Positions 9,625 through 44,836 of a stretch of 64,000 nt of DNA are shown here, one piece after another (within the stretch, counting starts at the first letter, position 1; every line of letters starts with the position of its first letter). The notes beneath the pieces were generated by a model. The model ran no database searches and was not told the DNA's origin. It saw only the letters and a program-made list of their open reading frames with translations. Both the position numbers and the translations under genes were made by a program. Source of the stretch: Verrucomicrobiota bacterium (GTDB lineage: Bacteria > Verrucomicrobiota > Verrucomicrobiia > Limisphaerales > JADLHS01). The stretch lies in contig JBDHQI010000005.1 of NCBI GenBank assembly GCA_039806955.1, forward strand, positions 39,118-103,117, written 5' to 3'.

Positions 9625-10530
9625 ATGAAACTCCGTCGTCGCGAATTCCTGGGTCGAACCGCACTTGGATTGGCGGGCAGCATGCTCGCGCCTTCATTAC
9701 TGGCCGATTCGCCCGCACCGCCCAAATTGTTTGCGCCCTATGAACCGGTGGCCATCGGCAAGACCAAGTTACGCTTCTCGCGGGTGGTGCTCGGCACGGG
9801 CATGCGCGGCGGCAACCGGGAATCCAATCAGACCCGGATGGGTAAGGAGAAATTTGAAACTTTGATTCGCGAAGCCAATGATCGCGGCGTGGATACGTTT
9901 GATCTGGCGGACCTGTACGGCACGCATCCCTACGTGATTCCGGCGTTGCAAGGAGTGCAGCGCGACAAAATCAATTTGATCACCAAAATTTGGTTCAGCT
10001 CCGGCGGCCTGCCGGAAAAGGAGCGACCGGACGCGGACGTTTGCGTGGAACGCTTCCTGAAGGAGCTGCGGACGGATTACATTGATCTGCTTCTGTTGCA
10101 CTGCGTGACCTCAGGAAAATGGCCGGAAGAATTGCGGCGGCAAATGGACATTCTCGCCAAACTCAAGGAGCAGGGCAAAGTCCGCGCGCTGGGCGTTTCC
10201 TGTCATTCGCTCGCTTCACTCGAGGCCTGCATCAACGAGCCGTGGGTGGACTCGGTGCATACGCGCATCAATCCGTACGGCATGAGCATGGATGGGCCGA
10301 CGGAGAAAGTGGTGCCGGTGCTCCAGAAGATTCACGCCGCCGGAAAAGGGGTGGTCGGCATGAAGATCATCGGCGAGGGCCGGTTGCGCGATGATCCCGA
10401 ACGACGCAGTGAGTCCATCAAGTTCTCATTACGCCTGGGTTGCGTGGACGTGCTGAACGTGGGCTGCGAATCCATCGCCGAAGTGGATGATTTGGCGGCG
10501 CGGATTAAAGTCGTGGAACGCCCCGGCTGA
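9625..10530 (+). CDS. Aldo/keto reductase with Tat signal
   Basis: 301 aa. It has a twin-arginine N-terminus (RRREFLGRTALGLAGS) followed by AKR-like segments DTFDLADLYG and YIDLLLLHC. Confidence 0.8.
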   Translation: MKLRRREFLGRTALGLAGSMLAPSLLADSPAPPKLFAPYEPVAIGKTKLRFSRVVLGTGMRGGNRESNQTRMGKEKFETLIREANDRGVDTFDLADLYGTHPYVIPALQGVQRDKINLITKIWFSSGGLPEKERPDADVCVERFLKELRTDYIDLLLLHCVTSGKWPEELRRQMDILAKLKEQGKVRALGVSCHSLASLEACINEPWVDSVHTRINPYGMSMDGPTEKVVPVLQKIHAAGKGVVGMKIIGEGRLRDDPERRSESIKFSLRLGCVDVLNVGCESIAEVDDLAARIKVVERPG

Positions 10531-16277: not shown

Positions 16278-17609
16278 TTAAACAATGGCGAGTGGAGTGA
16301 AGGAGCGGCCCAGCACCGGCACGCTTGATGTCTTGAGCCAGTTCTCCAACACGGCCGCATAGACGCAGCGGAAATCCACGGTGTATTGAATATCGCCGTT
16401 CAACAAATCTTTGGGCGCCAGACTCGGGTAGCGCCCCAGCAAACCGGCTTTGATGCGATTGCCGATCACGAACAGGGGCGCGGCGGCGCCGTGATCCGTG
16501 CCGCCACTGGCGTTTTCTGAAACGCGCCGGCCAAACTCGCTGAAGGTCATGACCAACACGCGCTCGAAATTGCCCTGTGCCTTCAAGTCGGCCACGAACG
16601 CCTGGAGCGCCCCGGCCAATTCGGCGAGCAGCCGCGTGTGCGTGCCCACCTGATTGGTATGCGTGTCGTAGCCGCCTTGCGAGACGTAGTAAATTCGCGT
16701 GGCCATGCCGCCGCCAATCAACCGCGCCACCAGTTTCAGCGAGTCGGCCAGACGCGAAGCTGGATAGGCCGTCTGGTTTGGCGCCTTGCCGGTGACGGCG
16801 CGAATTTCATCCGAACTCACCTGCGCATCCAGCGCCACGCGCTCGATGAAATCCAGCGGCGAACCGGCGGGTTGCACCGAACCGTTGAGCATGTCAATCG
16901 TTCCGCCGGAATCTTCTGTCGCCGCCTCGTGGACTTCATTCATCCTCCGGTAAATGGCCTCGCTGGTATCCGACTCATCCGCCCGGAGCCGGTCGGATTT
17001 GATGAAGCGATAATTCTCCGGATCGTTGAAGCAAACTCCGCGCGGCTGTTTGGCGGCGAGCGCCTGGGGCATTTGCGAGGTCAGGGCAATCGCCACGGCC
17101 GGATCGCAACCGTCACACGCACTGTCAAAATAACGTCCCAACCAACCGGTGTTTTCAAACCGGTTGGCGTCACTGGCGGTCTGCCAGATTTCCGTCGAAC
17201 GAAAATGCGAGCGGTTCGGATTTGGATAGCCCACCCCCTGCACAACCCCCAGGTGCCCCGCTTCAAACAACTCCTTCAAGCCGGCCATCCCGGGATTCAA
17301 CCCCACACTGTCGCTGAGGCGGAGCACGTCTTTCGCCGCCACCGCCAGCCGTGGCCGCGCCCGGCGATAATGATCATCGGCAAACGGCACGACCATGTTC
17401 AAACCGTCGTTGCCACCCGCCAGTTGCAGCACGACCAGGATCGTCCCATCCTTGCCCGTGGTGATCTGCGTGGCCGCATCCGCCGCAGTGGCGTGCAACG
17501 CCGCAAAGGTATTGGCGAGGAACGCGGGCACCGTCCAGGACAGCGCGCTGCCCAAGACGGTGCTGCGTAAAAATTCACGACGTGTTTTCAAGGTTGGTTC
17601 GAATTTCAT
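16278..17609 (-). CDS. DUF1501 domain protein (sulfatase-like), Tat signal
   Basis: 443 aa. It has TRREFLRSTVLGSALS at the N-terminus and the GGYDTHTNQ segment typical of DUF1501. Confidence 0.85.
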   Translation of the reverse strand: MKFEPTLKTRREFLRSTVLGSALSWTVPAFLANTFAALHATAADAATQITTGKDGTILVVLQLAGGNDGLNMVVPFADDHYRRARPRLAVAAKDVLRLSDSVGLNPGMAGLKELFEAGHLGVVQGVGYPNPNRSHFRSTEIWQTASDANRFENTGWLGRYFDSACDGCDPAVAIALTSQMPQALAAKQPRGVCFNDPENYRFIKSDRLRADESDTSEAIYRRMNEVHEAATEDSGGTIDMLNGSVQPAGSPLDFIERVALDAQVSSDEIRAVTGKAPNQTAYPASRLADSLKLVARLIGGGMATRIYYVSQGGYDTHTNQVGTHTRLLAELAGALQAFVADLKAQGNFERVLVMTFSEFGRRVSENASGGTDHGAAAPLFVIGNRIKAGLLGRYPSLAPKDLLNGDIQYTVDFRCVYAAVLENWLKTSSVPVLGRSFTPLAIV

Positions 17610-17646
17610 GACAAAATGTTATACGATTTAACTGGCCGCGTGTCGC

Positions 17647-19116
17647 TCAAGTCAGTTGATACTCGGGTGTGCTCATGGCCAGCCGGATGGCGCCGCGAAT
17701 GTCGTCCTCGTCCAACGCGCCTTGCGAATCCAGATACTCACGCAAGGCGGCTCGCTGCCCGGATTTCAGTTCCGTTTGGAACAAGCGCTTTTCCAAAGCG
17801 GCAATCAGCGCGGTTTGATCGCGTCGTTCCGATTCCGAAAATATCTTCGTCACCTCGATCTGAAGCGCGGCGGGACGCAGGCGTTTTACCGGCCTACGCG
17901 CGGCCGGCGGTGAATTGCGTTTCCCGTCTTTGGCCGGGGTCAGAGTGCCTTGCACCAGCAACGCGGCTTCGTTGTAACGCGCCAGCAACGTGTTCGTGGT
18001 GATCCAGGAAAATCCACCGTCCCAACCTTTCACGTTCGGCGGCGCGAACAAATCTTGTCCCAGTTCGCGCGTCAGACCGCCGCTCAGTTGGGGTGGCGGC
18101 AAGGTGGATTCCAACATGCGGATCGTGCCTGCCAACCATTGCGCCGGACTTTTCACCTGCGCACGGATCAAGGCAGCATCGTAGAATTCCTCGCTGCGCA
18201 ACAGGACGCGCAGGAATGGTTTGAAGTTGTTGCCCTGCTGCCGGAAGTTTGCGGCCAGCGCGTCGGCCAACTCGGCCGAAGCCGGTTGCCCCGCAAAGAA
18301 GTTCCAGAGTTTGGCCGTGATGAACCGCGCCGCCTGCGGTTGCGCCACGATCTGCGCCAACACGTCACGACCGTTCAACTGCCCGGTGCGACCCAACACG
18401 GTTTTGACGCCCGGATCATGCAGGGCGGGACGATCAACGAATTTCTGCGCCTCACGATTGTAACTCCACCCCGTCAACGCCCGCGCCGCTTCAGTGATGT
18501 CCCGCTCCGTGTAATGCCCTTCACCCAGTGTGAACAATTCCATCACTTCACGGGCGAAATTCTCGTTGGGATGTTGCTTGCGACTTTGAGCCTGATCCAA
18601 CCAGATGAGCATGGCCGGATCTTGCGCCATCTCGACCAGCAACCGCAGCCAGTTGTCGGTGGCGAGGCGGCGGAACAATTCGTTCTGTCGCCACATGAGA
18701 TACGGCTCGCGCACCTTGTCCACGCTGGTGGCGAAATGACCGTGCCAAAACAAAACCATCTTCTCCTGGAACGGGCGTGGGCCTTGGGCCATGCGGCTCA
18801 ACCACCAGTGGCGCAATTCCGTCATTTGCTCGCGTTGAACCCGCCGTTCCTCGCGCTGCATTTGGCGGCGCTGCTCCGCGTCCGCCTTGCGGAGCGCCTG
18901 AAGTTTTTCGCGCCGCTCCGGATCAGGCCGCGCCCACTTGGGCGCTGGCGTCGTGTCGGGAATTCTCTCATAATCCACCAACCGGGCAACCGCCGACTCC
19001 GGTCCAAGCGCAACGAGCTGTTGAATTTCGTCCGGTGGACCACCAAAACCGGCGCGATTCAACAAATGCGCGGCAGTCGTATAATTCCAACGATCATTGG
19101 TCAGTGGTTTGAGCAT
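17647..19116 (-). CDS. DUF1800 domain protein
   Basis: 489 aa. HPNENFAREVMELFTLGEGHYTERDITEAARALTGW is the characteristic DUF1800 core. It is paired with DUF1501, as is common in Planctomycetota and Verrucomicrobiota. Confidence 0.85.
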   Translation of the reverse strand: MLKPLTNDRWNYTTAAHLLNRAGFGGPPDEIQQLVALGPESAVARLVDYERIPDTTPAPKWARPDPERREKLQALRKADAEQRRQMQREERRVQREQMTELRHWWLSRMAQGPRPFQEKMVLFWHGHFATSVDKVREPYLMWRQNELFRRLATDNWLRLLVEMAQDPAMLIWLDQAQSRKQHPNENFAREVMELFTLGEGHYTERDITEAARALTGWSYNREAQKFVDRPALHDPGVKTVLGRTGQLNGRDVLAQIVAQPQAARFITAKLWNFFAGQPASAELADALAANFRQQGNNFKPFLRVLLRSEEFYDAALIRAQVKSPAQWLAGTIRMLESTLPPPQLSGGLTRELGQDLFAPPNVKGWDGGFSWITTNTLLARYNEAALLVQGTLTPAKDGKRNSPPAARRPVKRLRPAALQIEVTKIFSESERRDQTALIAALEKRLFQTELKSGQRAALREYLDSQGALDEDDIRGAIRLAMSTPEYQLT

Positions 19117-19475: not shown

Positions 19476-20882
19476 ATGGTGAGCGCGTCGTTTGAAATTG
19501 GAGACATGACCAGCAGCACCACCACCCACTTAGATCTTTCCACATCCGAAGCGCCTCACCCCAATCGCATCGCCCCTGACCAGGTCCTGTCCACGTTGGA
19601 ACAGCACATCCTCGTGGACGGCTTCAAGTTGATTTTTGATACGGAACACAGCCGTGGCTCGCACTTCGTGGATGCGGCCACGGGACGCGAATTCATTGAT
19701 CTCTACGGCTTCTACGCCTCGCAACCCATCGGCTACAATCATCCGTATCTCAACCGCTCCGAGGTCCAGGCGGATTTGTTGCAGGCCGCCCAGGTAAAAG
19801 TGGCTAACGCCGACGTTTACACACCGCAATACGCCACTTTCGTCGAAATGTTCGCGCGCGTCATCGCGCACCCGCAACTGCCACGCTACTTCTTCATCGA
19901 AGGCGGCGCGCTAGCGGTCGAGAACGCCATCAAAGCGGCCATGGATTGGAAAGTGCGGAAAAATCTGGCTGCGGGTCGCGGCGAACGCGGCACGGAAATC
20001 ATCCATTTCAAACACGCCTTTCACGGGCGTTCCGGTTACACGTTGAGCCTGACAAACACTGATCCCAACAAGGTCGCTTACTTCGCCAAGTTCCCCTGGC
20101 CGCGCATCAGCACGCCCATGCTGAATTTTGCCCTGCCTGAAGCCGAACGGATCCGGGACGTCATCGCTCGCGAACAACAAGCGGAAAGGGAGATCCGTGC
20201 CGTACTCGCTGAAAAGGCGGCGGACATTGCGGCGATCATCATCGAACCGATTCAAGGCGAAGGCGGCGACAACCATTTCCGCCCCGAGTTCATGCAACTT
20301 CTGCGCAAGGTGGCTGATGAACATGAGCTTCTGCTGATCTTCGATGAAGTGCAATCGGGCATGGGCATCACCGGGAAAAATTGGGCGGCGGAACATTACG
20401 ACGTTGTGCCGGACTTGATCGCGTTCGGAAAAAAATCGCAAGTCTGCGGGGTCATGGCAGGAAAGCGCCTGGATGAAGTGAAGGATAATTGTTTCCGACT
20501 GCCGGGCCGCATCAGCTCGACCTGGGGCGGCAACTTTACCGATTACGTGCGTTCGACGCACTACCTTCGGATTTACGAACAAGAACAGTTGGTCGCAAAT
20601 GCGCGCACCCAGGGCGAAAAACTGCTGGCGGGACTCTACGAATTGGCGCGAACCAATCCCGTCGTGACCGCGCCGCGCGGCAAAGGTTTGATGCTGGCCT
20701 TTGACCTGCCGGATACCGCCACGCGCGATGCGTTCTGGCGCGGCTGTTATGCCTTGAACTTGTTGGTCATTCGTTCCGGCTCGCGTTCAATCCGGCTGCG
20801 ACCGATGATGGACATCCAGGACGACATCATCGAACAGGCACTCAAAATCATGGACGATGAATGTGGCAAACTATCGCGCTGA
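19476..20882 (+). CDS. lat: L-lysine 6-transaminase (class III aminotransferase)
   Basis: The sequence is colinear with LAT as I remember it: FHGRSGYTLSLTNT, EPIQGEGGDNHFRPEF, LIFDEVQSGMGITG, AFGKKSQVCG. The ORF track starts at 19116, but the conserved region begins near 19560. The start is uncertain (ATG 19476 or 19506). Confidence 0.8.
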   Translation: MVSASFEIGDMTSSTTTHLDLSTSEAPHPNRIAPDQVLSTLEQHILVDGFKLIFDTEHSRGSHFVDAATGREFIDLYGFYASQPIGYNHPYLNRSEVQADLLQAAQVKVANADVYTPQYATFVEMFARVIAHPQLPRYFFIEGGALAVENAIKAAMDWKVRKNLAAGRGERGTEIIHFKHAFHGRSGYTLSLTNTDPNKVAYFAKFPWPRISTPMLNFALPEAERIRDVIAREQQAEREIRAVLAEKAADIAAIIIEPIQGEGGDNHFRPEFMQLLRKVADEHELLLIFDEVQSGMGITGKNWAAEHYDVVPDLIAFGKKSQVCGVMAGKRLDEVKDNCFRLPGRISSTWGGNFTDYVRSTHYLRIYEQEQLVANARTQGEKLLAGLYELARTNPVVTAPRGKGLMLAFDLPDTATRDAFWRGCYALNLLVIRSGSRSIRLRPMMDIQDDIIEQALKIMDDECGKLSR

Positions 20883-21020
20883 AGGCCGGGCTGCTAATTA
20901 CCTCGATTTACCGATCCCGCGCGGAGGGACGAAAGCGGACAACCGATTCCAAGCGTGACGCGGACCAGAATTGATTTTGTCGGACGTCTCGAAACATGCT
21001 ATTAAGCAAGGAAGATCATC

Positions 21021-37417: not shown

Positions 37418-37852
37418 GTCGGCAGGTTAAACTTCCGCCGCGAGAAAATCACGCTCGAACCGGACCGCCTTTGACAATCTGTTGATGTAATCCCATTTGT
37501 CATCAATTGGCGCTTATGTTGCAATTAACGGGTCAGCCCATCCCGCATATTTGGAATGAGCCGTCTGTCCCGTGCGGGCCGGGCGGAAGAATTCCGCGTT
37601 GCAAACTCTATTCCCGATGTGCTTCAACAACATCTGAGCGGCGGGTGCAGCCAATAAACGTGCCTTTGACGGGCCGATTAAATTGAGATTTCAAAGCGGT
37701 TCACGGACGGCTATTTTCCCCGTCATGTCTGTGACTTTGATAGACAAATATTTTTCAGCCATCGCGCCGGGCGTCAAGGCCGACGTCGCACCAGCGGAAA
37801 TGGTCATCGCATTTTTGCGATGGAATTACTCTTTAGCCTAGATTGAATTTTT

Positions 37853-38827
37853 ATGTCCGACGAGAATCAACAGCCGCAACCGAACCCCGAGCGCAAAACG
37901 CTCGACGACCGCGCAAAGATGACCGAGTTGGAACGCCTCCGCCACTCGTGCGCGCACGTCATGGCCACCGCCATCCTGCGCCTGTGGCCGGACGCGCAAT
38001 TCGCCTACGGCCCGCCCGTCGAGAACGGTTTTTACTACGACCTCGAATGTTCCCATCGCATCTCGCCCGAGGATTTTGAAAAAATCGAGGCCGAGATGAA
38101 AAAGGAGATCAAGTCCAACAACGTCTTCCAGAAGATCGAAGTGCCGCGCGAACAAGCTATCAAGGACGCGCAAAGCGGTCGGCTCGGCGGTCTGACGGAA
38201 CGCCCCGGCCATGCGAGCAAATTCAAGCTCGACCTCATCGCGCAGATTCCCGAAGGCGAACCGATTTCATATTTCAAGAACGGCGATTTCATTGACCTCT
38301 GCGCCGGGCCGCACGTGATGCGCACGGGCAACATCGGCGCGTTCAAGCTCACGAGCGTCGCCAGCGCGTATTACAAGGGCGACGAAAAAAATCCGCAGTT
38401 GCAACGCATTTACGGCACGGCGTTCAAGAACAAGACGGCGATGGACGAGTATTTCAAAATGCTCGAGGAAGCGAAGCGCCGCGACCATCGCAAGATCGGC
38501 GCGGAGATGGGGCTGTTCGCGATTGATACCGAATACGTCGGGCCGGGCATGCCGCTGTGGCTGCCCAAGGGCACGGTGCTGGTGGAGGAACTGGAAAAGC
38601 TGGCCAAGGAAACGGAATTCGCCGCCGGCTACGTCCGCGTCCGCACGCCGCATCTGGCCAAGGAGAAGATGTATAAAACCTCCGGCCATCTGCCGTATTA
38701 CGCCGAGAGCATGTTTCCGAAAATGGAAATGGACGAACACCGCGAAGCTCGCGCGAAACTCCAGTCCCGCATCGCCGAACTGGAAAAACAACTGGCCGAT
38801 TACGCGAAGAAAAAATCCGGTGGATGA
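37853..38827 (+). CDS. thrS: Threonyl-tRNA synthetase N-terminal fragment (editing-domain part, motif 1) with a 31-aa cassette-encoded tail
   Basis: RHSCAHVMATAILRLWP, RDHRKIG, VRVRTPHL (motif 1 Pro) and TSGHLPYYAESMFP are colinear with bacterial ThrRS up to the loop before the zinc-site Cys. After M293 (ATG 38729) the ORF reads DEHREARAKLQSRIAELEKQLADYAKKKSGG and then stops. There is no TGS domain: the HSCAH motif starts at residue 31. Confidence 0.9.
   Translation: MSDENQQPQPNPERKTLDDRAKMTELERLRHSCAHVMATAILRLWPDAQFAYGPPVENGFYYDLECSHRISPEDFEKIEAEMKKEIKSNNVFQKIEVPREQAIKDAQSGRLGGLTERPGHASKFKLDLIAQIPEGEPISYFKNGDFIDLCAGPHVMRTGNIGAFKLTSVASAYYKGDEKNPQLQRIYGTAFKNKTAMDEYFKMLEEAKRRDHRKIGAEMGLFAIDTEYVGPGMPLWLPKGTVLVEELEKLAKETEFAAGYVRVRTPHLAKEKMYKTSGHLPYYAESMFPKMEMDEHREARAKLQSRIAELEKQLADYAKKKSGG
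38724..38821 (+). repeat. Core TGGAAATG plus R module, copy 1 (in frame with thrS)
   Basis: This is the 8-bp core followed by a 90-nt segment. The segment recurs at 39417 (6 mismatches in 90 nt by hand alignment) and at 40646 (5 mismatches in about 80 nt). Confidence 0.9.
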
Positions 38828-38900
38828 GGTTTAACCGCGAAACACACCGCAGAAATGCCCTTTGCACGACTGCATTCGCCAAGTTATACTTTGCAGCAAG

Positions 38901-39113
38901 ATGAAAACGGTCGAAGCCATCATTGAAACCAATGGCGAGGTGCATTTGGTTGAACCGATCCGCGTGCAATCGCCGCGCCGCGCGCTGGTCACGATACTCG
39001 AAGAAGCTCCGACCGTGCATGATGCCGCGCTGTTGAGCGAGGCCGCGCTCGCCGAGGACTGGAATTGCGCCGAGGAGGACGCTGCATGGGCACATTTACA
39101 GCCAGCCAAGTAG
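38901..39113 (+). CDS. Cassette A antitoxin-like protein (MazE-position partner)
   Basis: 70 aa from ATG 38901. MKTVEAIIETNGEVHLVEPIRVQSPRRALVTILEE...ALLSEAALAEDWNCAEEDAAWAHLQ resembles small antitoxins found upstream of MazF/PemK toxins. It overlaps the toxin start. Confidence 0.55.
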   Translation: MKTVEAIIETNGEVHLVEPIRVQSPRRALVTILEEAPTVHDAALLSEAALAEDWNCAEEDAAWAHLQPAK

Positions 39114-39420
39114 TCATCGTCCACTTTCCCTTCTCCGATCTCACGGCCTCCAAACTCCGTCCGGCAGTTGTGCTGGCCGAAGTGGACGCGGCGATTGGAT
39201 TCTCTGCCAAATCACCAGCAAATCCTACGGTGATGGCAAGGCCATCACGCTCGACACTGCCGACTTCGCCCACGGCTCACTTCGGATCACCAGCTATGCG
39301 CGTCCCGGAAAACTGTTCACCGCGCACCACAGCCTCGTCGCAAATCAGGTTGGTGAATTGCAGCCTGCAAAATTTGCTGCCATCCGCGACGCTGTGGTGC
39401 GGATGATTCAAAAAAGTTGA
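39086..39420 (+). pseudogene. Cassette A MazF/PemK-family toxin interrupted by a frameshift near 39190
   Basis: Frame 1 reads MGTFTASQVVIVHFPFSDLTASKLRPAVVLAEVDA. After an apparent 1-nt loss in GACGCGGCGATTGG, the family-typical continuation lies in another frame: GDWILCQITSKSYGDGKAITLDTADFAHGSLRITSYARPGKLFTAHHSLVANQVGELQPAKFAAIRDAVVRMIQKS-stop. Confidence 0.7.
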
Positions 39421-39514
39421 AATGGACGAACACCGCGAAGCCCGCGCGAAACACCAGCCCCGCATCGCCGAACTGGAAAAACAACTGGTCGATTACGCGA
39501 AGAAAAAGTCCGGC
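39417..39514 (+). repeat. Core TTGAAATG plus R module, copy 2
   Basis: See copy 1. It encodes MDEHREARAKHQPRIAELEKQLVDYAKKKSG... from its own ATG at 39422. Confidence 0.9.
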
Positions 39515-39564
39515 GAGGAAAGTTCAACCGCGAAATACGCCAAATACGCGAAAGCATTTCAGTC

Positions 39565-40638
39565 ATGCCCAAACCGAAAATCACCCCGCCGCCACCCGTT
39601 GCGCCTGAAACCTGGCAGGCATTGCTCGCCGCCACTGCCGAGTTCGCCGCGCTCCAACCGTGGGAATTCGCCTACGACAGCGATCCCGTTGGCTTGGTTG
39701 ATCCCGTCACTGGCGAGACGCGCATCGGCCATGTTCTCGGCAACGCGGGCGAGGTGTTCGCCGCCGTGTTTTACCGGCGCGCAGGACTGCGCTGGATTCT
39801 CGCCATGCTCGGCGATTCGCCCGATCCCGAGGATTTGAATAACGCCGATGGCATGGACTGCCTCAAAGTCGAACTCGTTCCCAAGCGCGAACTGTGGAAG
39901 GAAGACCTTGCCCTACTCAAGGCCGCCGCGTTCAAGCCCGCTGGAAAGGGACTCGTCTGGCCGCAATTCCGTTCCTCCGCTCCCGGTTGGCATCCGTGGC
40001 ATATCAATCAGGCCGAGGCAGATCAACTGCTCGCCGATCTGCCGCGTCTCACGGCGTTCTACCGGTTGTTCAAGCAACACCCCGACCTCTACGACGACCG
40101 CGACGCGACAGAGATTCCGTTTCTGCCCGTGCCGCTGGCCGCCCGCCCGCTCACGATTGCCGACCTCGACTGGCATCCGCTCCTGTTGCCGCCGCTCACC
40201 GGCTTCGAGCCGTTTCAAGTTCCCGGTGCTGATCTCGAAAAACTCCGCGCGCTCAAGCGCGATCCCGGCCTCGAATGTGAGTTCGACTGCACGATGATGC
40301 CCGGCGGTTCGTTTTACGAGAATGGACGCCCTTGCTTTGGCCGGTTCAGCCTGCTGGTGGAAAAACAACGTGGTCTCGTCATCGGCATGGACGTGGCCAG
40401 TGGCGCGCTCACGCCCGGCGAAGCCGCCGGACGCACTCTGGTCAAGGCGCTCCTCATGGGCAAAACCCTGCCGGAAAAAATCTTCATCGGCGGGTTGCGC
40501 CTGCAACCCGTCCTACAACCGCTGTGCGACGAATTGCAAATCCAGCTTCGGCCCGCGTCCTCGCTGCCTGCCTTGGAAGGAGCCATTGAATCGTTGAGCC
40601 AACAGTTGATGACAACAGGTGGGCCGGGACGACTCTGA
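39565..40638 (+). CDS. Cassette B hypothetical protein (357 aa)
   Basis: This is a long ORF co-oriented with thrS, at genome-typical GC. I recognise no catalytic or family motif with confidence. Confidence 0.55.
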   Translation: MPKPKITPPPPVAPETWQALLAATAEFAALQPWEFAYDSDPVGLVDPVTGETRIGHVLGNAGEVFAAVFYRRAGLRWILAMLGDSPDPEDLNNADGMDCLKVELVPKRELWKEDLALLKAAAFKPAGKGLVWPQFRSSAPGWHPWHINQAEADQLLADLPRLTAFYRLFKQHPDLYDDRDATEIPFLPVPLAARPLTIADLDWHPLLLPPLTGFEPFQVPGADLEKLRALKRDPGLECEFDCTMMPGGSFYENGRPCFGRFSLLVEKQRGLVIGMDVASGALTPGEAAGRTLVKALLMGKTLPEKIFIGGLRLQPVLQPLCDELQIQLRPASSLPALEGAIESLSQQLMTTGGPGRL

Positions 40639-40645
40639 CGGAAAA

Positions 40646-40736
40646 TCGAAATGGACGAACACCACGAAGTCCGCGCGAAACTCCAGTCCCGCATCGCCGA
40701 ACTGGAAAAGCAACTGGCCGATTACGCGAAAAAATC
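40646..40736 (+). repeat. Core TCGAAATG plus R module, copy 3
   Basis: See copy 1. It encodes a free-standing 30-aa ORF, MDEHHEVRAKLQSRIAELEKQLADYAKKSK (40651..40743). Confidence 0.9.
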
Positions 40737-40900
40737 AAAGTAGGACAGCGCGTCCCGCCTGTCTGGATGAAGGGGAAATGGCCGCAACAGAACGCAAGGC
40801 GCGCAAAGAATTTAACCGCGAAAGACGCGGAGACGCAGAGTGAAAACTGCCATTTATCTCTGTCTTTGCTTCACGACCTGAAAAAGCTTAGACTTCCGGC

Positions 40901-41113
40901 ATGAAAACGAGTCTGCCCATCGAAGTTGACCGGGAAATCATGAGCGGCGCGCCGGTGTTCCGGGGCACGCGCGTGCCGGTGCAATCGCTGTTTGAATATC
41001 TGGAGGACAATCTGTCGTTGGAGGAATTTCTGGACTGCTTTCCCACGGTGAAGCGCGAGGACGCCATCGCGGTGCTGGAACACAGCAAGAGCGAATTGCT
41101 CGTTCATGCGTGA
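40901..41113 (+). CDS. Cassette C DUF433 domain protein (antitoxin-like)
   Basis: 70 aa. IMSGAPVFRGTRVPVQSLFEYLEDNLSLEEFLDCFPTVKREDAIAVLE is the DUF433 pattern. It has a GTGA overlap with the next gene. Confidence 0.7.
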   Translation: MKTSLPIEVDREIMSGAPVFRGTRVPVQSLFEYLEDNLSLEEFLDCFPTVKREDAIAVLEHSKSELLVHA

Positions 41114-41424
41114 AAATTCTTTTCGACGAATGTATGCCGCAACCGTTGCGCCGCCTTCTGGCGGATTTTGAGATTTCCACAGCGCAGGAAATGGGCTGGG
41201 GTCGCGTGAAGAATGGCGAATTGCTGAAACGCGCGGAGGGTGTGTTCGATGCTTTTCTGACTTCGGATCAGCAGTTGAAGTATCAGCAAAATTTGAAAGG
41301 CAGAAAACTCGCGATCCTCGTGCTCTCGACAAACCGCTGGCCAAAGGTCAAAGCCAAAACGCAGGAAATCATCGCGGCGATTCAATCGTTGAAACCCGGA
41401 GATTACATCGAGTTGGCTCTGTGA
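41110..41424 (+). CDS. Cassette C DUF5615 / PIN-like (Mut7-C-like) protein (toxin-like)
   Basis: 104 aa. MKILFDECMPQPLRRLLADFEISTAQEMGW...GELLKRAEGVFDAFLTSDQQL fits the DUF5615 family, which is commonly paired with DUF433. Confidence 0.65.
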   Translation: MKILFDECMPQPLRRLLADFEISTAQEMGWGRVKNGELLKRAEGVFDAFLTSDQQLKYQQNLKGRKLAILVLSTNRWPKVKAKTQEIIAAIQSLKPGDYIELAL

Positions 41425-41428
41425 ATTT

Positions 41429-41436
41429 TTGAAATG
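41429..41436 (+). repeat. Fourth copy of the 8-bp core (TTGAAATG); its ATG is the ThrRS C-fragment start codon
   Basis: TNGAAATG occurs at 38724, 39417, 40646 and 41429, at exactly the four junctions of the cassette array. Confidence 0.85.
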
Positions 41437-42522
41437 AACCCTGAAGAATTTGTTGCCATTGAACAGGCCGTCAAGGCCAGCGCCGCGCCGACGGAGATTG
41501 TCGCCGCATTCAACGAGTTGGCCGCGTTGCGCGCGCAGTTGAACAAGCTCGGCGAGGCGGAGAGTTATTACCTCAAAGCGATGAACTGCCCGCATCATCA
41601 CCGCATTTTTGCGGCCGAGCCGCGCAGTTATCGCGACCTGCCGTTGCGCCTCGCGGAATACGGCTGCTGCTATCGCTACGAGCAGTCGGGCGAGTTGTTC
41701 GGCCTCATGCGCGTGCGTTCGCTCAACATGAACGACGCCCACATCTATTGCACCGAGGACCAGTTCGCGTCCGAGTTCAAGGCCGTGAACGACATGTATC
41801 TGAAATATTTCAAGACGTTCGGCCTCGAAAAATATCAGATGCGCTTCAGCACGTCGTCGCCGGAGGGCCTGGGCAAAAAATACGTCAACGAGCCCGGGCT
41901 GTGGAAGAAAACCGAGGACATGGTGCGTCGCGTGTTGCAGGAAAGCGGCATCAATTACATCGAGGTCGCGAACGAGGCGGCGTTCTACGGCCCGAAGATT
42001 GACGTGCAGGTGTGGAGCGCCATCGGCCGCGAATTCACCATCGCCACGAACCAGGTGGACTTCGCCGTGCCGTCGCGCTTCGGCCTGACCTATCGCGACA
42101 AGGACAATTCCAACAAGACGCCGTTGTGCATCCATCGCGCGCCGCTCGGCACGCACGAGCGGTTCATCGGCTTCCTCATCGAGCATTATGCCGGCAACTT
42201 CCCGCTCTGGCTCGCGCCCGACCAGGTGCGCGCCATCACGCTCAACGACGACGCGGCGCTGATTGCTTACGCCCAGCCCATCGTGAACGAACTACGCGCG
42301 AACATGGTGCGCGTGGACACGGATTTCAGCGCCACGCCGTTCAAGGCGAAGATCGCCGACGCGGAAAAGCTCCGCGTCCACACCATGCTCATCATCGGCG
42401 GCAAGGACATGGAAGCAGGCAAAGTTTCCGTGCGCCTCCACCACGGCGGCCCGCAAGGCGCAAAGCCGAAGGCGGAAGTTCTTGCGAAGATTCTGGCGGA
42501 CATCAAAGAGCGGAAGGCGTGA
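41434..42522 (+). CDS. thrS: Threonyl-tRNA synthetase C-terminal fragment (zinc site, motifs 2 and 3, anticodon-binding domain)
   Basis: 362 aa. A 47-aa helical-looking extension (NPEEFVAIEQAVKASAAPTEIVAAFNELAALRAQLNKLGEAES) comes first. It is followed by YYLKAMNCPHHH, motif 2 (RLAEYGCCYRYEQSGELFGLMRVRSLNMNDAH), motif 3 (GTHERFIGFLIEHYAG) and the anticodon-binding domain. Confidence 0.9.
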   Translation: MNPEEFVAIEQAVKASAAPTEIVAAFNELAALRAQLNKLGEAESYYLKAMNCPHHHRIFAAEPRSYRDLPLRLAEYGCCYRYEQSGELFGLMRVRSLNMNDAHIYCTEDQFASEFKAVNDMYLKYFKTFGLEKYQMRFSTSSPEGLGKKYVNEPGLWKKTEDMVRRVLQESGINYIEVANEAAFYGPKIDVQVWSAIGREFTIATNQVDFAVPSRFGLTYRDKDNSNKTPLCIHRAPLGTHERFIGFLIEHYAGNFPLWLAPDQVRAITLNDDAALIAYAQPIVNELRANMVRVDTDFSATPFKAKIADAEKLRVHTMLIIGGKDMEAGKVSVRLHHGGPQGAKPKAEVLAKILADIKERKA

Positions 42523-44438
42523 ACTCGAATAGCATCGTGCAGCAGCCGTCATCAAATGATTCCCGAAAAGACCGGAGCGAACCGACAACTTCCAGAACTT
42601 TGCTCAAAGGATTTCGCGCAGACCGCAAGCACCACGGAAAGCTTTTGTTCGTTGATGAAAAGTTGAAGGTGTTTCCGACCGGCAAATGGTCTGAACTCTA
42701 CGCAAGCCCGCGCCGAGGTTTCCTCGTCGAAGTTGACCAGAAGGGTCAGTTCAAGCCCCTCAACATTTACAAAGACCCGCGCAGTCAAATCTTGCCGAGA
42801 ACGCTCTCCCGTTGGCTCAAAGAAGATTGGGAGATTCAAAAGGAGATAAAGAAGCGACGCAGAGAAGACAAAAATGTTCGGGCGATTCAACCGAACTCGA
42901 TTGTCGCGACCAGCACGGCGGCCCTTCCGAAAAGGGTTCTAGTCTTGGACATTGAAACGTCCGGCAAGCTGGACGAGCCGCCCAATACAGGAAGAATACT
43001 GCTCGTGGGAATCAAGGAGTTCAATCTGGTCAGTGGCGGTTATCACCCGTCGCCATACGAGCCGTTTGAGGGCAAACCTGATTGGGTAGCACTTCAGCAA
43101 CGCTTGAGCCAGCCGACGGATTTGATTTTGGGACACAACATATTCGGGTTCGATTACTATTTTCTCGAAACAATCATTCAGATTGAGCTGATCGCCGCAA
43201 AGACGGTTGATTTGTTCCTTTGGTTGTGCGCGTGCGTTGGATTTCACCGCGGCCTTGGGCTAAACGATCTTTGCCGACTCAACATCGGGGTGTGGAAGGC
43301 TCGATTTGGAAAGTCGCTGAAAGAGCTTTCCGCGCTACCCGACAGAACACATCTTCACCGTTACAACGAGCGCGACTTGGATTTGACTTTTCGGCTCTGG
43401 CTGCACGCTGTCGCTCAAAAAACAATCCAGACTCATGGCGCTGGAAATTTGAAGGCTACCAGCAGCGACCTCGACTATCTTTTTGGCCGCAAGCCAATTG
43501 TCGGACATCAGGCTTGGATGGAAAAGCGGCGGGCTTGGAACTCAAAGCTGCCTTCACCTCTACATCGTGAAGCTGTAATTCAGAGACTTGGCGACCACGA
43601 CGCAGAGAAAGTGGTGTGGCCGAGCTACAGCGTAATCGTCTGCTCGTGTTGCCGCCATGCGACGGTGTTCCAAGTTTTCGAATTATTTCAGCGAGACGTC
43701 GAGGATGGTGCGGACTTCCCTGGGCACGCTTTGATTAAACGGGAACTCAAGACCTACAGGCTTCGATGTGCGTGCGGCGAAAGCATCAAAGCCCGGAGTT
43801 CCACTCCTCCAATCTTGATTGGCAATTTCGCGATCAAATCTCCCCGGAAGCGAACCGATGGCTATTGGTCACCAATGCTGCACACTGGAGGACAGTATCT
43901 TCTCTCGCCATTTGAAAAGACATGGGAGCAGTTATTCCGAGAATTCAAACTCGGACGGAGGAGTTCGTCATCAACGTCATTCAAACGGAAGCCCACACCA
44001 GAGGAGGCTGCACTGTTGAGTGCGGCAGTCGGCGAAGAATTCAAACGCAGCATCACTTTCAACGAAAAGGGCACGGCCTATCTTTTGCTCGACGGCGGTG
44101 AGCCTTCAGACTGCTACATGAAGGAATACATGGCGGCTGGATTGGACGACGTTCTGGAAGAACACTGGAAAGGCAACGCTTCGTGGATTAGCCGCACGGC
44201 CCTCGACAGCGATGCTCACTGCCGGACATGCGGGGCTCGGTTGACCATTCACGACATCCCGCTTGTTCACCCGATTTTCCAAACTCCAATTTGCCAGCCA
44301 TGTATTCGCCTCGGACGGCATCGCTACTTTCATTGCGGCGAGTGGCAACCGAAGTTGAAGCGACGACGCGCAAAGTTTCTCGATGAATTAGAACCAACAA
44401 CCTCATCGCGGAATTTAACCGCGTTTTACATGCGTTGA
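42519..44438 (+). CDS. YprB-like DEDD 3'-5' exonuclease domain protein with C-terminal Cys-rich (zinc-ribbon-like) region
   Basis: Exo motifs are VLVLDIETSG, LILGHNIFGFDYYFL and HRYNERDLDLTFRLW. C-terminal Cys clusters are CSCCRH...CACG and HCRTCG...CQPCIRLGRHRYFHCG. The ORF-track start at 42012 overlaps thrS out of frame. The first plausible start is the GTG at 42519 (GTGA overlap with the thrS stop), and TTG/GTG starts up to about 42670 are also possible. GC is clearly lower than the surroundings. Confidence 0.6.
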   Translation: MNSNSIVQQPSSNDSRKDRSEPTTSRTLLKGFRADRKHHGKLLFVDEKLKVFPTGKWSELYASPRRGFLVEVDQKGQFKPLNIYKDPRSQILPRTLSRWLKEDWEIQKEIKKRRREDKNVRAIQPNSIVATSTAALPKRVLVLDIETSGKLDEPPNTGRILLVGIKEFNLVSGGYHPSPYEPFEGKPDWVALQQRLSQPTDLILGHNIFGFDYYFLETIIQIELIAAKTVDLFLWLCACVGFHRGLGLNDLCRLNIGVWKARFGKSLKELSALPDRTHLHRYNERDLDLTFRLWLHAVAQKTIQTHGAGNLKATSSDLDYLFGRKPIVGHQAWMEKRRAWNSKLPSPLHREAVIQRLGDHDAEKVVWPSYSVIVCSCCRHATVFQVFELFQRDVEDGADFPGHALIKRELKTYRLRCACGESIKARSSTPPILIGNFAIKSPRKRTDGYWSPMLHTGGQYLLSPFEKTWEQLFREFKLGRRSSSSTSFKRKPTPEEAALLSAAVGEEFKRSITFNEKGTAYLLLDGGEPSDCYMKEYMAAGLDDVLEEHWKGNASWISRTALDSDAHCRTCGARLTIHDIPLVHPIFQTPICQPCIRLGRHRYFHCGEWQPKLKRRRAKFLDELEPTTSSRNLTAFYMR

Positions 44439-44477
44439 ATTTGAAAAGTTTTACCCAAGTTGAACCAAGTTGCCATC

Positions 44478-44836
44478 GGAAGACCGAGGACATGGTGCGC
44501 CGCGTGTTGCAGGAGAGCGGCATCAATTACGTCGAGGTCGCGAAGTGTTAGCACACGGCCACCAGGCGGCGTCCTACGGGCCGAAGATTGACGTGCAGGT
44601 GTGGAGCGCCATCGGCCGCGAATTCACCATCGCCACGAACCAGGTGGACTTCGCCGTGCTGTCGCGCTTCGGCCTGACCTACCGCGACAAGGACAACTCC
44701 AACAAGACGCCGTTGTGCATCCATCGCGCGCCGCTCGGCACTCACGAGCGGTTCATTGGCGGCAATCAGTTACATTACGCGGGCAACTTCCCGCTCTGGC
44801 TCGCGCCGGATCAGGTGCGCGTCATCACGCTCAGCG
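44478..44836 (+). pseudogene. Decayed duplicate of an internal thrS segment (equivalent to 41903..42250)
   Basis: It aligns by hand to the functional copy: ...ACCGAGGACATGGTGCG...GGCCCGAAGATTGACGTGCAGGTGTGGAGCGCCATCGGCCGCGAATTCACC.... It carries an insertion of about 17 nt that creates a stop and a frameshift after ...INYVEVA, substitutions (AVPSRF to AVLSRF, FIGFLIEHY to FIGGNQLHY), and truncation at both ends. Confidence 0.8.

Follow-up and report, generated by a model that had tools for sequence, protein, structure and literature searches.

The thrS gene in the window (the whole 64-kb stretch of Verrucomicrobiota DNA that was analyzed) is a naturally split, two-gene threonyl-tRNA synthetase (ThrRS). 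The halves of an essential enzyme gene are thereby encoded apart, with helical arms that probably help the two halves find each other and a gap that collects toxin-antitoxin genes. Reading frames, domain searches and alignments placed thrS-N at 37853-38827 on the forward strand (324 aa) and thrS-C at 41434-42522 on the same strand (362 aa). The thrS-N product contains the editing domain (tRNA_SAD match) and the class II catalytic domain from its start through motif 1, followed by a tail helix and a stop codon. Its C-terminal end reads FPKMEM-DEHREARAKLQSRIAELEKQLADYAKKKSGG-stop, with the M of MDEH at 38729. The thrS-C product begins with MNPEEFVAIEQAVKASAAPTEIVAAFNELAALRAQLNKLGEAES-YYLKAMNCP, where codon 48 ends at 41577, and comprises the rest of the catalytic domain with motifs 2 and 3 and the MNCPHHH zinc site (tRNA-synt_2b match) as well as the anticodon-binding domain (HGTP_anticodon match). 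The break falls between class II motifs 1 and 2, as the original prediction had stated, and both the reading frames and the domain matches bear this out. Apart from a decayed fragment, no other thrS was detected within the 64-kb window. We found no published description of this split ThrRS in the literature.

Split thrS genes were observed in about 20 of 87 related genome loci (Verrucomicrobiota: Pedosphaera, Limisphaerales), and split and unsplit alleles both occur among close relatives. Protein clusters consist of the N half alone in more than 100 cases (about 315-335 aa) and of the C half alone in dozens (362-366 aa), with 77-93% identity. In the 20 split loci dN/dS was 0.15 for thrS-N and 0.18 for thrS-C, compared to 0.12 and 0.14 for intact loci. 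In L001, a contig of 4.64 Mb, thrS-C lies on the opposite strand from thrS-N, and in L002 and L004 no thrS-C was found within 10 kb of thrS-N. Since the halves are inverted or unlinked in some genomes, they must work as two polypeptides. Judged by their conservation, both halves are functional and under purifying selection across the clade; together with the inverted and unlinked arrangements this supports the earlier claim of a genuine two-polypeptide ThrRS. In a tree of the ThrRS core, split alleles are scattered over several branches, and two pairs of split and intact sisters have bootstrap values of 96-100%. The split loci have additional similarity to one another around the junction, and the flanks are mosaic. 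The split allele, cargo included, seems to move between lineages.

Both chain ends at the break are predicted to be helical. The tail of thrS-N (38729-38827, forward strand; MDEHREARAKLQSRIAELEKQLADYAKKKSGG-stop) forms an amphipathic heptad helix, the first arm of a hairpin. Among 83 distinct tails, a single register gives hydrophobic a/d positions (I/L11, I15, L18, L22, Y25). The C-head of thrS-C (41434-41565, forward strand) is the return arm and consists of helix A (PEEFVAIEQAVK), a kink (ASAAP) and helix B (TEIVAAFNELAALRAQLNKL); it is conserved in every split relative. In the tail the amphipathic periodicity is strongest at 95-100 degrees, in helix B at about 105 degrees. An amphipathic helix and stop ending the N half and a helical extension heading the C half had both been proposed from the DNA alone; the unique a/d register, the predicted helices and the periodicity of helix B agree with this. 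Alignment also upheld the statement that the connector of E. coli ThrRS is short (about 8 residues), and that of S. aureus is likewise short, whereas a helical hairpin stands at this position here. The connector PMQLDETES of S. aureus is matched by MEMDE at the start of the repeat R described below and by the ES that closes the C-head. The tail has a dN/dS of 0.24 overall and 0.11 for RIAELEKQL. Its dS is like that of the rest of the gene, which indicates that constraint acts on the protein and not on the DNA. For the C-head dN/dS was 0.42. The hairpin inserts of unsplit enzymes are similarly constrained (0.20 and 0.32), and hence selection cannot prove a role in assembly. Tail and C-head distances are correlated (r 0.68, partial 0.65, p about 0.013), a relation that linkage alone can explain.

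AlphaFold2 predictions were carried out with two artificial covalent fusions, a design that favours a hairpin. For the fused N+C sequence, helices were predicted at 297-322, 327-338 and 344-362 (pLDDT 88-92) in a model that is poor overall (global pLDDT 59). A 107-aa junction construct reached a pLDDT of 76.7 and a pTM of 0.57, with helices at about 93; in its alignment the first C-head helix is misplaced in most C-fragment rows. Across both fused-construct predictions the tail helix has a pLDDT of about 90 and the C-head helices 88-93. In the junction model a beta bridge joins MEM (15-17) to ESY (91-93) at the hairpin base. Thus the three helices are predicted to close at the chain break, a geometry that fits a zipper role well. 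The nearest structural neighbours of the model are antiparallel helical hairpins, SerRS arms among them, at non-significant scores. Like the SerRS-type coiled-coil arm, this is a long antiparallel helical hairpin projecting from a class II synthetase; unlike it, it sits at another position in the fold, has no sequence relation and shows no support for tRNA contact here.

The end of thrS-N recurs in the window as a repeat, R, of which three copies are present and none would be expected by chance, all on the forward strand. R1 (38720-38848) comprises the last thrS-N codons, including the tail, and about 20 nt past the stop (TTTAACCGCGAAACAC). R2 (39413-39541), a relic copied from the 3' end of thrS-N, is 88% identical to R1, with L-to-H and S-to-P changes and a lost stop codon. 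R3 (40642-40828) is the oldest and most diverged duplicate (73% to R1). Its repeat copy proper spans 40642-40770, a REP-like insert lies at about 40733-40800, and in the sister loci L008 and L014 the native thrS-N gene ends just as R3 does (KSK-stop + GGACAGCGCGTCCCGCCTGTC). Nearly all split relatives have a single copy of R, which is the plain 3' end of thrS-N. The codons with which R opens (K-M-E-M-D-E) belong to the native connector of ThrRS, as a comparison with PMQLDE of S. aureus shows, and R-like first helices, e.g. AELDRKIAELKKTL and LERKIAAIEAKL, as well as C-head-like helices occur inside unsplit relatives. In other contigs (L097, L114, L134) the duplicated stretch takes in a further 20-47 codons of the thrS core and its left edge differs; across the arrays these edges fall at thrS-N residues 249-291. 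Taken together, the single-copy state in relatives, the native connector, the unsplit counterparts and the varying edges argue that R2 and R3 were copied from the gene end. On these comparative grounds R belongs to thrS itself and forms the first arm of a hairpin that is specific to the lineage and also found in unsplit relatives.

The gap between the halves holds three cassettes, all on the forward strand. Cassette 1 consists of an antitoxin-like ORF (38862-39113, 83 aa, without family match) and a PemK/MazF-like toxin gene (39065-39420) that is frameshifted near 39190. When repaired, the toxin matches PF02452 at 28.7 bits (cut-off 23.1); an intact homologue is present in L097, and in L097 and L118 a homologue of the antitoxin-like ORF adjoins an undamaged PemK gene. 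Cassette 2 (39565-40638) encodes a DUF7309 + DUF6930 protein of 357 aa, with homologues in, or directly adjoining, thrS in five relatives. Cassette 3 (40901-41424) is a toxin-antitoxin-like pair of DUF433 (40901-41113) and DUF5615 (41110-41424) directly upstream of thrS-C. The pair occupies the same position in L019, L034, L091, L115 and L126, and DUF433 alone was detected there in L008 and L072. Elsewhere, multi-copy R arrays flank PemK (L097), DarT-macro (L114, L136) and HepT-like/MNT genes (L130). Two further relics lie outside the gap, also on the forward strand. Directly upstream of thrS-N, at 37680-37815, a copy of the canonical thrS-C 5' leader is followed by about 30 degenerate C-head codons (MSVTLIDKYFSAIAPGVKADVAPAEMVIAF). 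It was found as repeat D2 (70% to 41444-41510) and also by tblastn, and 52 nt of it are 90% identical to the leader that precedes thrS-C in L005, L010 and L017. Downstream, a cargo ORF of roughly 600 aa (about 42600-44438) precedes a decayed internal copy of thrS-C (44462-44835; core residues 109-227, 91% nucleotide identity) with frame damage and a pN/pS of 0.41. We infer that the duplicates of R are relics of cassette entry. Neither a recombinase nor a circular intermediate for cassette entry was seen, and the islands examined have no integrase or transposase in or beside the arrays.

The explanation that we favour, and consider somewhat more probable than its negation, is a split at the hairpin tip with non-covalent assembly of the halves, the arms acting as a zipper and the gap as a cassette sink. 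The ThrRS of this lineage would carry a fast-evolving helical hairpin in place of the short connector between motifs 1 and 2, and in an S-type allele family the gene would have been broken at its tip. thrS-N would keep the first arm (the R sequence) as a C-terminal amphipathic helix followed by a stop, and thrS-C would have its own start codon and keep the return arm as an N-terminal helix-kink-helix. The two polypeptides would have to assemble non-covalently in order to rebuild the catalytic domain. Their arms would re-form an antiparallel hairpin, its base predicted to close exactly at the chain break, and would probably serve as a built-in zipper aiding association and positioning. The gap would have filled with accessory cassettes, toxin-antitoxin and others, entering by recombination within the thrS fragment ends and each leaving a direct duplicate of that end; comparative anatomy suggests that R2 and R3 are such duplicates.

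A different account holds that a mobile cassette carrying R as helix plus stop was inserted into an intact thrS, its peptide docking on a pre-existing helix so that the insertion was tolerable. Each cassette in the window is indeed headed by a copy of R, other contigs also have toxin-antitoxin cassettes flanked by R, and the scattered tree positions and shared junction similarity of split loci fit a moving allele. However, R is a single-copy gene end in most split loci, it lacks single-strand hairpin structure (z +0.3 to +0.4) and excess conservation at the DNA level, and the arrays lack integrases and transposases. The native connector codons, the unsplit counterparts and the variable edges largely refute a mobile origin of R, and we regard this account as improbable. 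The original prediction that an element supplied the docking peptide was therefore not sustained; its causal order is largely reversed, the cassette copies deriving from the gene end. Still less probable is a disrupted pseudogene whose work is done by an intact thrS elsewhere. The search covered the 64-kb window, but open frames, low dN/dS over about 20 species and more than 100 clusters speak against it, and true relics at the same loci do decay, as the lost stop of R2 and the damaged copy at 44462-44835 illustrate. We give least credence to the idea that DNA excision, RNA splicing, ribosomal bypass or protein splicing joins the halves again, either ahead of expression or in the course of it. 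The thrS-N/R1 junction and the thrS-C start share the hexamer GAAATG, and a deletion between these copies would be in frame; yet the repeat is missing at most other split loci. The window contains no Rfam intron or ribozyme match, and with a tail end of KKKSGG-stop and a head starting at M no intein-like junction residues were seen by eye. The inverted arrangement of the halves refutes rejoining in cis.

The most serious competitor, possible though clearly less probable than the zipper reading, is a split and functional enzyme whose helices do not drive assembly. The shared catalytic-domain sheet and the dimer interface would hold the halves, and the hairpin would have a role of its own, such as contact with tRNA, regulation or the binding of a partner. 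Hairpins of several unrelated sequence families persist in unsplit relatives under the similar purifying selection described above, so the arms may be maintained for what the hairpin itself does and not for assembly. Both fragments contribute parts of the catalytic domain, and from the established architecture of class II synthetases the halves would be expected to touch outside the helices as well. Against this, a linker of only 10-22 residues suffices in some unsplit relatives, which indicates that the hairpin is dispensable for catalysis. Moreover, hairpin action in the split form needs pairing of the arms, which tethers the halves anyway, and the predicted closure sits at the break.

Natural split synthetases include the alpha/beta LeuRS of Aquifex aeolicus, the AlaRS of Nanoarchaeum equitans and crenarchaeal ThrRS-cat/ThrRS-ed. 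As in these, an essential enzyme is made as two assembling polypeptides from genes that are both selected and possibly unlinked. The present case differs from those listed in combining a bacterial host with a class II enzyme. In contrast to crenarchaeal ThrRS, where catalytic and editing modules are separated, the break lies inside the catalytic domain; it also lies at the tip of a lineage-specific hairpin, with unsplit alleles in close relatives and a gap collecting mobile cargo. PMC9974479 reports the use of engineered split orthogonal synthetases to detect protein-protein interactions. The split ThrRS would be a natural counterpart of such engineered zipper-assisted fragment complementation, but it is ancient and uses its own hairpin arms instead of added zippers, with a putative interaction.

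The cargo region resembles several known systems. Minimal mobile elements of Neisseria, e.g. at the pheS-pheT intergenic site, likewise place varied cassettes without mobility genes at one site between conserved essential genes. Exchange here seems to proceed in the same way by homologous recombination in the flanks, as cargo differs between loci and flanks are mosaic. Unlike there, the two flanks are halves of one gene and an entry leaves behind a direct duplicate of the gene end beside it, to our knowledge no described feature of minimal mobile elements. Genomic islands that integrate at the 3' end of a tRNA or protein gene also have a direct repeat of the target's 3' end on either side of the cargo; there, as here, the target stays intact and older copies decay the further they are displaced. 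Unlike such islands, none of those examined here has an integrase. Repeat length (about 100 to about 560 nt) and left edges vary, which argues for homologous and not site-specific recombination. The arrayed short cassettes, most with a single function and many of them toxin-antitoxin pairs, and a separating repeat of about 100-130 nt recall integron cassettes with attC; yet no IntI is nearby, R has no hairpin fold, and R is host coding sequence whose boundaries vary between contigs. Partial 3' copies were also observed trailing unsplit thrS genes, and a lysS-like gene shows the same.

The threonyl-tRNA synthetase gene of the window is present as two separate open reading frames. thrS-N (37853-38827, + strand) encodes 324 aa that comprise the tRNA_SAD editing domain (PF07973) and the first part of the class II core, up to and including motif 1. 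thrS-C (41434-42522, + strand) encodes 362 aa with the tRNA-synt_2b domain (PF00587), including the MNCPHHH zinc-site motif, and the HGTP anticodon-binding domain (PF03129). The N fragment ends in ...FPKMEM-DEHREARAKLQSRIAELEKQLADYAKKKSGG-stop, and the C fragment begins with MNPEEFVAIEQAVKASAAPTEIVAAFNELAALRAQLNKLGEAES-YYLKAMNCP. The best PDB matches on both sides of the junction were ThrRS (1nyq, 1qf6 and others). Solved ThrRS structures (S. aureus, E. coli) align across the junction with a short connector only, and the E. coli connector given in the original prediction is correct. Reading frames, domains and PDB alignments also confirmed a split thrS with an N-fragment tail and an extended C-fragment start, and the two fragments together carry the domain set of a class II threonyl-tRNA synthetase. 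Between them lies a gap of 2.6 kb, which holds three cassettes and three copies of R, a repeat of ~130 nt (R1, the 3' end of thrS-N, at 38720; R2 at 39413; R3 at 40642).

A search with thrS-N recovered more than 100 clusters of N-only proteins (~315-335 aa, 79-93% identity), which end in a common tail type, MDEHRxxRxx[LI]xxRIAELEKQLxx[YHF]AKK. The thrS-C search yielded dozens of proteins that comprise the C fragment only (362-366 aa) and share its head, and also full-length relatives of 620-634 aa. Related thrS loci are designated L001 and so on. Among 87 such loci, 80 of them one-genome-per-species genome contigs, 20 were split and 52 uninterrupted. All carry a label or a placement within Verrucomicrobiota (Pedosphaera, Limisphaerales, subdivision 3), and the split is a state of the clade and not a local accident.

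In L001, a contig of 4.64 Mb, thrS-C is located 4.5 kb from thrS-N on the opposite strand, and in L002 and L004 it was not found within 10 kb of thrS-N. These arrangements exclude read-through, splicing, bypass and excision, and the halves must therefore act as two polypeptides. An intein, an intron or a bypass element in the gap does not agree with halves that are inverted or unlinked, and an Rfam search of the window gave no match; on the latter ground R was also rejected as an RNA element, intron or ribozyme. A split pseudogene with an intact paralogue elsewhere is unlikely, because both cores of the split loci are under strong purifying selection (dN/dS 0.15 for N and 0.18 for C, compared to 0.12 and 0.14 in intact loci) and true relic thrS copies at these same loci show decay. 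Separate reading frames, purifying selection and recurrence across genomes point to a two-gene synthetase. The opposite strands in L001, the distance in L002 and L004 and, in many loci, a conserved leader of thrS-C itself argue for independent expression and against rejoining in cis. Overall, a split, trans-acting and functional ThrRS is well supported by these sequence comparisons.

Known split synthetases include the LeuRS of Aquifex, the AlaRS of Nanoarchaeum and the crenarchaeal ThrRS-cat/ed. In contrast to these, the split thrS is bacterial, its break interrupts the class II catalytic domain at a dispensable hairpin's tip, unsplit alleles exist alongside it, and its gap doubles as a cassette site. 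Engineered split synthetases have been described as well (PMC9974479). No description of a split bacterial ThrRS was found in the literature searched. The enzyme would be a widespread natural class II synthetase whose catalytic domain is cut in two between motifs 1 and 2, and with two small genes and clear deletion controls the system is amenable to test. Annotation pipelines and marker-gene completeness tools will score thrS of these genomes as fragmented or missing.

The C-terminal helix of thrS-N (the tail) and the N-terminal helix-kink-helix of thrS-C (the head) are referred to as hairpin arms. Across 83 distinct tails a single heptad register places I/L11, I15, L18, L22 and Y25 at positions a/d. 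The amphipathic periodicity is 95-105 degrees, and the second head helix also has heptad periodicity. The originally predicted heptad-like amphipathic helix in the tail was borne out by this unique register and by predicted helices with pLDDT ~90; by the same features the arms resemble zipper-type amphipathic helices with hydrophobic a/d residues. dN/dS was 0.24 for the tail, 0.11 for its RIAELEKQL segment and 0.42 for the head. Synonymous divergence of the tail equals that of the rest of the gene, hence it is the peptide rather than the DNA that is constrained.

AlphaFold2 modelling of artificially fused N and C fragments gave a poor global pLDDT of 59 (shallow alignment), with helices 297-322, 327-338 and 344-362 at pLDDT 88-92. 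A fused 107-residue junction construct reached pLDDT 76.7 and pTM 0.57 (helices ~93) from an alignment in which the first head helix was misplaced in most C-fragment rows. Here, a beta bridge connects MEM, just before the tail helix, to ESY, just after the head, and thereby closes the base of the hairpin at the chain break in the fused model. Foldseek returned no significant match; the nearest, non-significant neighbours were antiparallel helical hairpins (CHMP, LSD1 tower, SerRS arm). Distances between tails correlate with those between heads (partial r 0.65, p ~0.013), which linkage explains equally, and the hairpin families of unsplit enzymes evolve under equal constraint (dN/dS 0.20 and 0.32). 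Because of the fused chains, the misplaced helix, the linkage and the equal constraint on unsplit hairpins, a zipper role of the arms is regarded as the best-fitting interpretation, plausible and moderately supported, and not as a demonstrated fact. Such an apparent built-in zipper parallels what protein engineers make by hand for split enzymes.

Where the arms come from can be read from the connector between ...SMFP[PKA]M and YYLKAMNCP, which is hypervariable in this lineage (L008-L087 and the related proteins P0121-P0240). Between motif 1 and motif 2 we found linkers (10-22 residues), helical inserts (49-110 residues) of several unrelated sequence families, a Y1 transposase domain, and the split form. 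Each helical insert family is conserved across species, yet its distribution does not follow the core tree. For example, L031 groups there with L038 and L042 (100% bootstrap) but carries a different insert family. L066 (10013-12535) and L081 (10001-12526) contain an uninterrupted thrS ORF of ~841 aa with an in-frame IS200-like Y1 transposase domain (PF01797) at exactly the split site of the window, with GVPPAVSGVAPET repeats on its flanks. Two loci, L005 and L001, also have free Y1_Tnp genes within their thrS gap. Several unsplit inserts start with an R-like helix, e.g. AELDRKIAELKKTL and LERKIAAIEAKL, and several finish with a head-like helix, e.g. ...APKEVIDAFRN... and ...SQEVVALYRERDELDRKLAALKEPEN. 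By comparison with solved ThrRS, MEMDE, which opens R, and ES, which closes the head, are the ends of the ancestral short connector. The R-like helices in unsplit inserts and these ancestral ends indicate that R belongs to thrS itself, where it forms the first arm of a hairpin specific to this lineage, and the break sits at the hairpin tip. The original prediction had a cassette element supply the docking helix and the stop, making the split tolerable. This is not supported, and the direction is reversed, since R-like helices are present in unsplit thrS and the connector residues are native. A break at the tip of a dispensable hairpin represents a route to gene fission.

All split loci have homologous tails and heads, yet they occupy several places on the core-protein bootstrap tree, including split/unsplit sister pairs (L024 with unsplit L078, 100%; L007 with unsplit L082, 96%). 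Third-codon divergence of split pairs relative to split-versus-intact pairs was ~0.98 at the far ends of the gene and fell to 0.75-0.79 within ~130 codons either side of the junction, to which the extra similarity among split loci is confined. This mosaic agrees with a split allele that arose once and was then spread, or retained, via homologous recombination in the conserved flanks.

R is mostly present as a single copy. The 19 other split genome loci contain R once in full, as the thrS-N end, the sole exception being a short partial copy in L007, and a metagenome scan for R gave 51 stretches, nearly all of them thrS-N ends. Multiplied R copies flank toxin-antitoxin cassettes in the metagenome contigs L097, L114, L130 and L136, and L134, also a metagenome contig, carries an array of duplicated thrS-N ends. 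Where identified, the cargo between copies consists of toxin-antitoxin modules: in L097, cassette 1 of the window in a form with an intact PemK pair; DarT with a macro domain (DarG-like) in L114 and L136; and HepT-like plus MNT in L130. The duplicated unit in L097, L114 and L134 reaches 20-47 codons further into the thrS core, with differing left edges. Over the duplicated gene ends as a whole, left edges range over residues 249-291 of thrS-N and core residues 120-280 of thrS-C. In the window, identity to R1 is 88% for R2 and 73% for R3, i.e. divergence rises with distance. R3 ends in ...KSK-stop followed by GGACAGCGCGTCCCGCCTGTC, as does the native thrS-N in the sister loci L008 and L014.

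Duplicated gene ends are also found outside the gap. Partial thrS 3' copies lie downstream of unsplit thrS in L008, L015, L023, L037, L038, L043, L045, L047 and others, and L126 has a partial head copy before a DUF433-DUF5615 pair. The architecture found at thrS recurs in L002 at a lysS-like class II gene (16469-18127), the last 374 nt of which are duplicated 2.4 kb downstream (20523-20905; 88% nt and 99% aa identity); the copies enclose a cargo island, followed by a DUF433 gene. The window itself contains a decayed thrS-C copy at 44462-44835 (core residues 109-227, 91% nt identity, frame damage). This relic is preceded by an ORF of ~600 aa (~42600-44438) without a family match, which by eye looks like a DnaQ-like exonuclease. 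We propose that cassettes recombine into the end regions of highly conserved genes, and that each entry would leave a gene-end duplicate, older copies moving outward and decaying. The idea that the cassette carries R holds in so far as each incoming cassette may bring a copy; R itself originates from thrS, as its occurrence as a single-copy gene end elsewhere indicates.

Cassette 1 of the window comprises an antitoxin-like ORF and a PemK/MazF-like toxin gene (39065-39420), which is frameshifted near 39190; the toxin is intact, with the same antitoxin partner, in L097 and L118. Cassette 2 (39565-40638) encodes a DUF7309/DUF6930 protein. In most loci where it is found, this gene is directly 3' of a thrS piece, namely thrS-N (L008, L014), thrS-C (L017), intact thrS (L047) or R2 (window); in L007 it lies within the gap behind an MNT gene. 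Cassette 3 is a DUF433-DUF5615 pair, which is found immediately 5' of thrS-C in five further loci as well (L019, L034, L091, L115, L126). In L034 the pair is the sole cargo, and among the cassettes it may be the earliest to have settled in the gap. The cassette proteins gave no match in defence-system and NCBIfam scans. ORFs of 1447-1475 aa in L008 (15712-20624), L043 (12769-17587) and L047 (15857-20815) each have a thrS 3' copy immediately behind them, which starts at core residue ~132-134, and may form a recurring cargo-plus-gene-end unit in three species. The 1447-aa ORF of L008 has a T5SS/PEP-CTERM-associated repeat and no recombinase domain was found in it; its size-matched counterpart in L047 had no Pfam match. 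Space within an essential gene can in this way turn into a stable store of toxin-antitoxin and defence cargo.

Several known types of cassette site were compared with the thrS gap. For an integrase-mediated 3'-end island speaks the direct repeat of the target 3' end that flanks the island; against it, neither an integrase nor a fixed crossover site was found, and the left edges vary. Neither the window flanks nor the islands of L001-L008, L037 and L047 yielded an integrase or transposase, and none was found in or beside any R array examined, including L097. The genes flanking the window site are a methyltransferase-like ORF (named by eye), a LacI-type regulator, NrdR and an exonuclease, with no recombinase among them. 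An integron cassette array would have IntI near the array and a hairpin fold in R, both of which are absent: single-strand DNA folding of R gave z of +0.3 to +0.4. R also has no inverted repeats and no excess synonymous conservation, and was rejected as an attC-like or otherwise structured recombination site. As in minimal mobile elements, cargo differs between loci, mobility genes are lacking and a single site between conserved genes is used, which suggests exchange by flank homology. The cassette site resembles both the minimal mobile elements of Neisseria and 3'-end-targeting islands, differing from the latter in having no integrase and no fixed crossover point.

Tentatively, the split-thrS allele might be more than a tolerated accident. 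A unit of hairpin arms, private thrS-C leader and resident toxin-antitoxin pair would spread between lineages by homologous recombination through the conserved thrS flanks, the essential gene serving as a protected landing pad without an integrase. A single crossover would insert cassettes that bear a copy of a thrS fragment end; the gene end would thereby be restored, and the cassettes would be difficult to lose. Unsplit thrS and the lysS-like gene could be used in the same way at their 3' ends.

Two dispersed motifs accompany the gene ends. The REP-like palindromic motif GGACAGCGCGTCCCGCCTGTC interrupts R3 (40733-40800) and is also located just past the thrS-N stop in L008 and L014, and TTYAACCGCGAAA(N)ACGC follows every R copy.

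Many thrS-C genes have their own private conserved leader, for which structure prediction gave no conserved structure. The actual thrS-C of the window is without this leader and adjoins the DUF5615 stop codon. A 90% copy of the leader (TTGAGATTTCA..GCGGTTC.CGGACGGCTATTTTC), with ~30 degenerate head codons, is found just upstream of thrS-N at 37680-37815, a further trace of recombination at fragment ends. In L026 an unsplit thrS is preceded by a thrS-C-type leader and first codons (MHEN...; 9923-9975), which points to an earlier swap of 5' ends between fragments, or to re-fusion.
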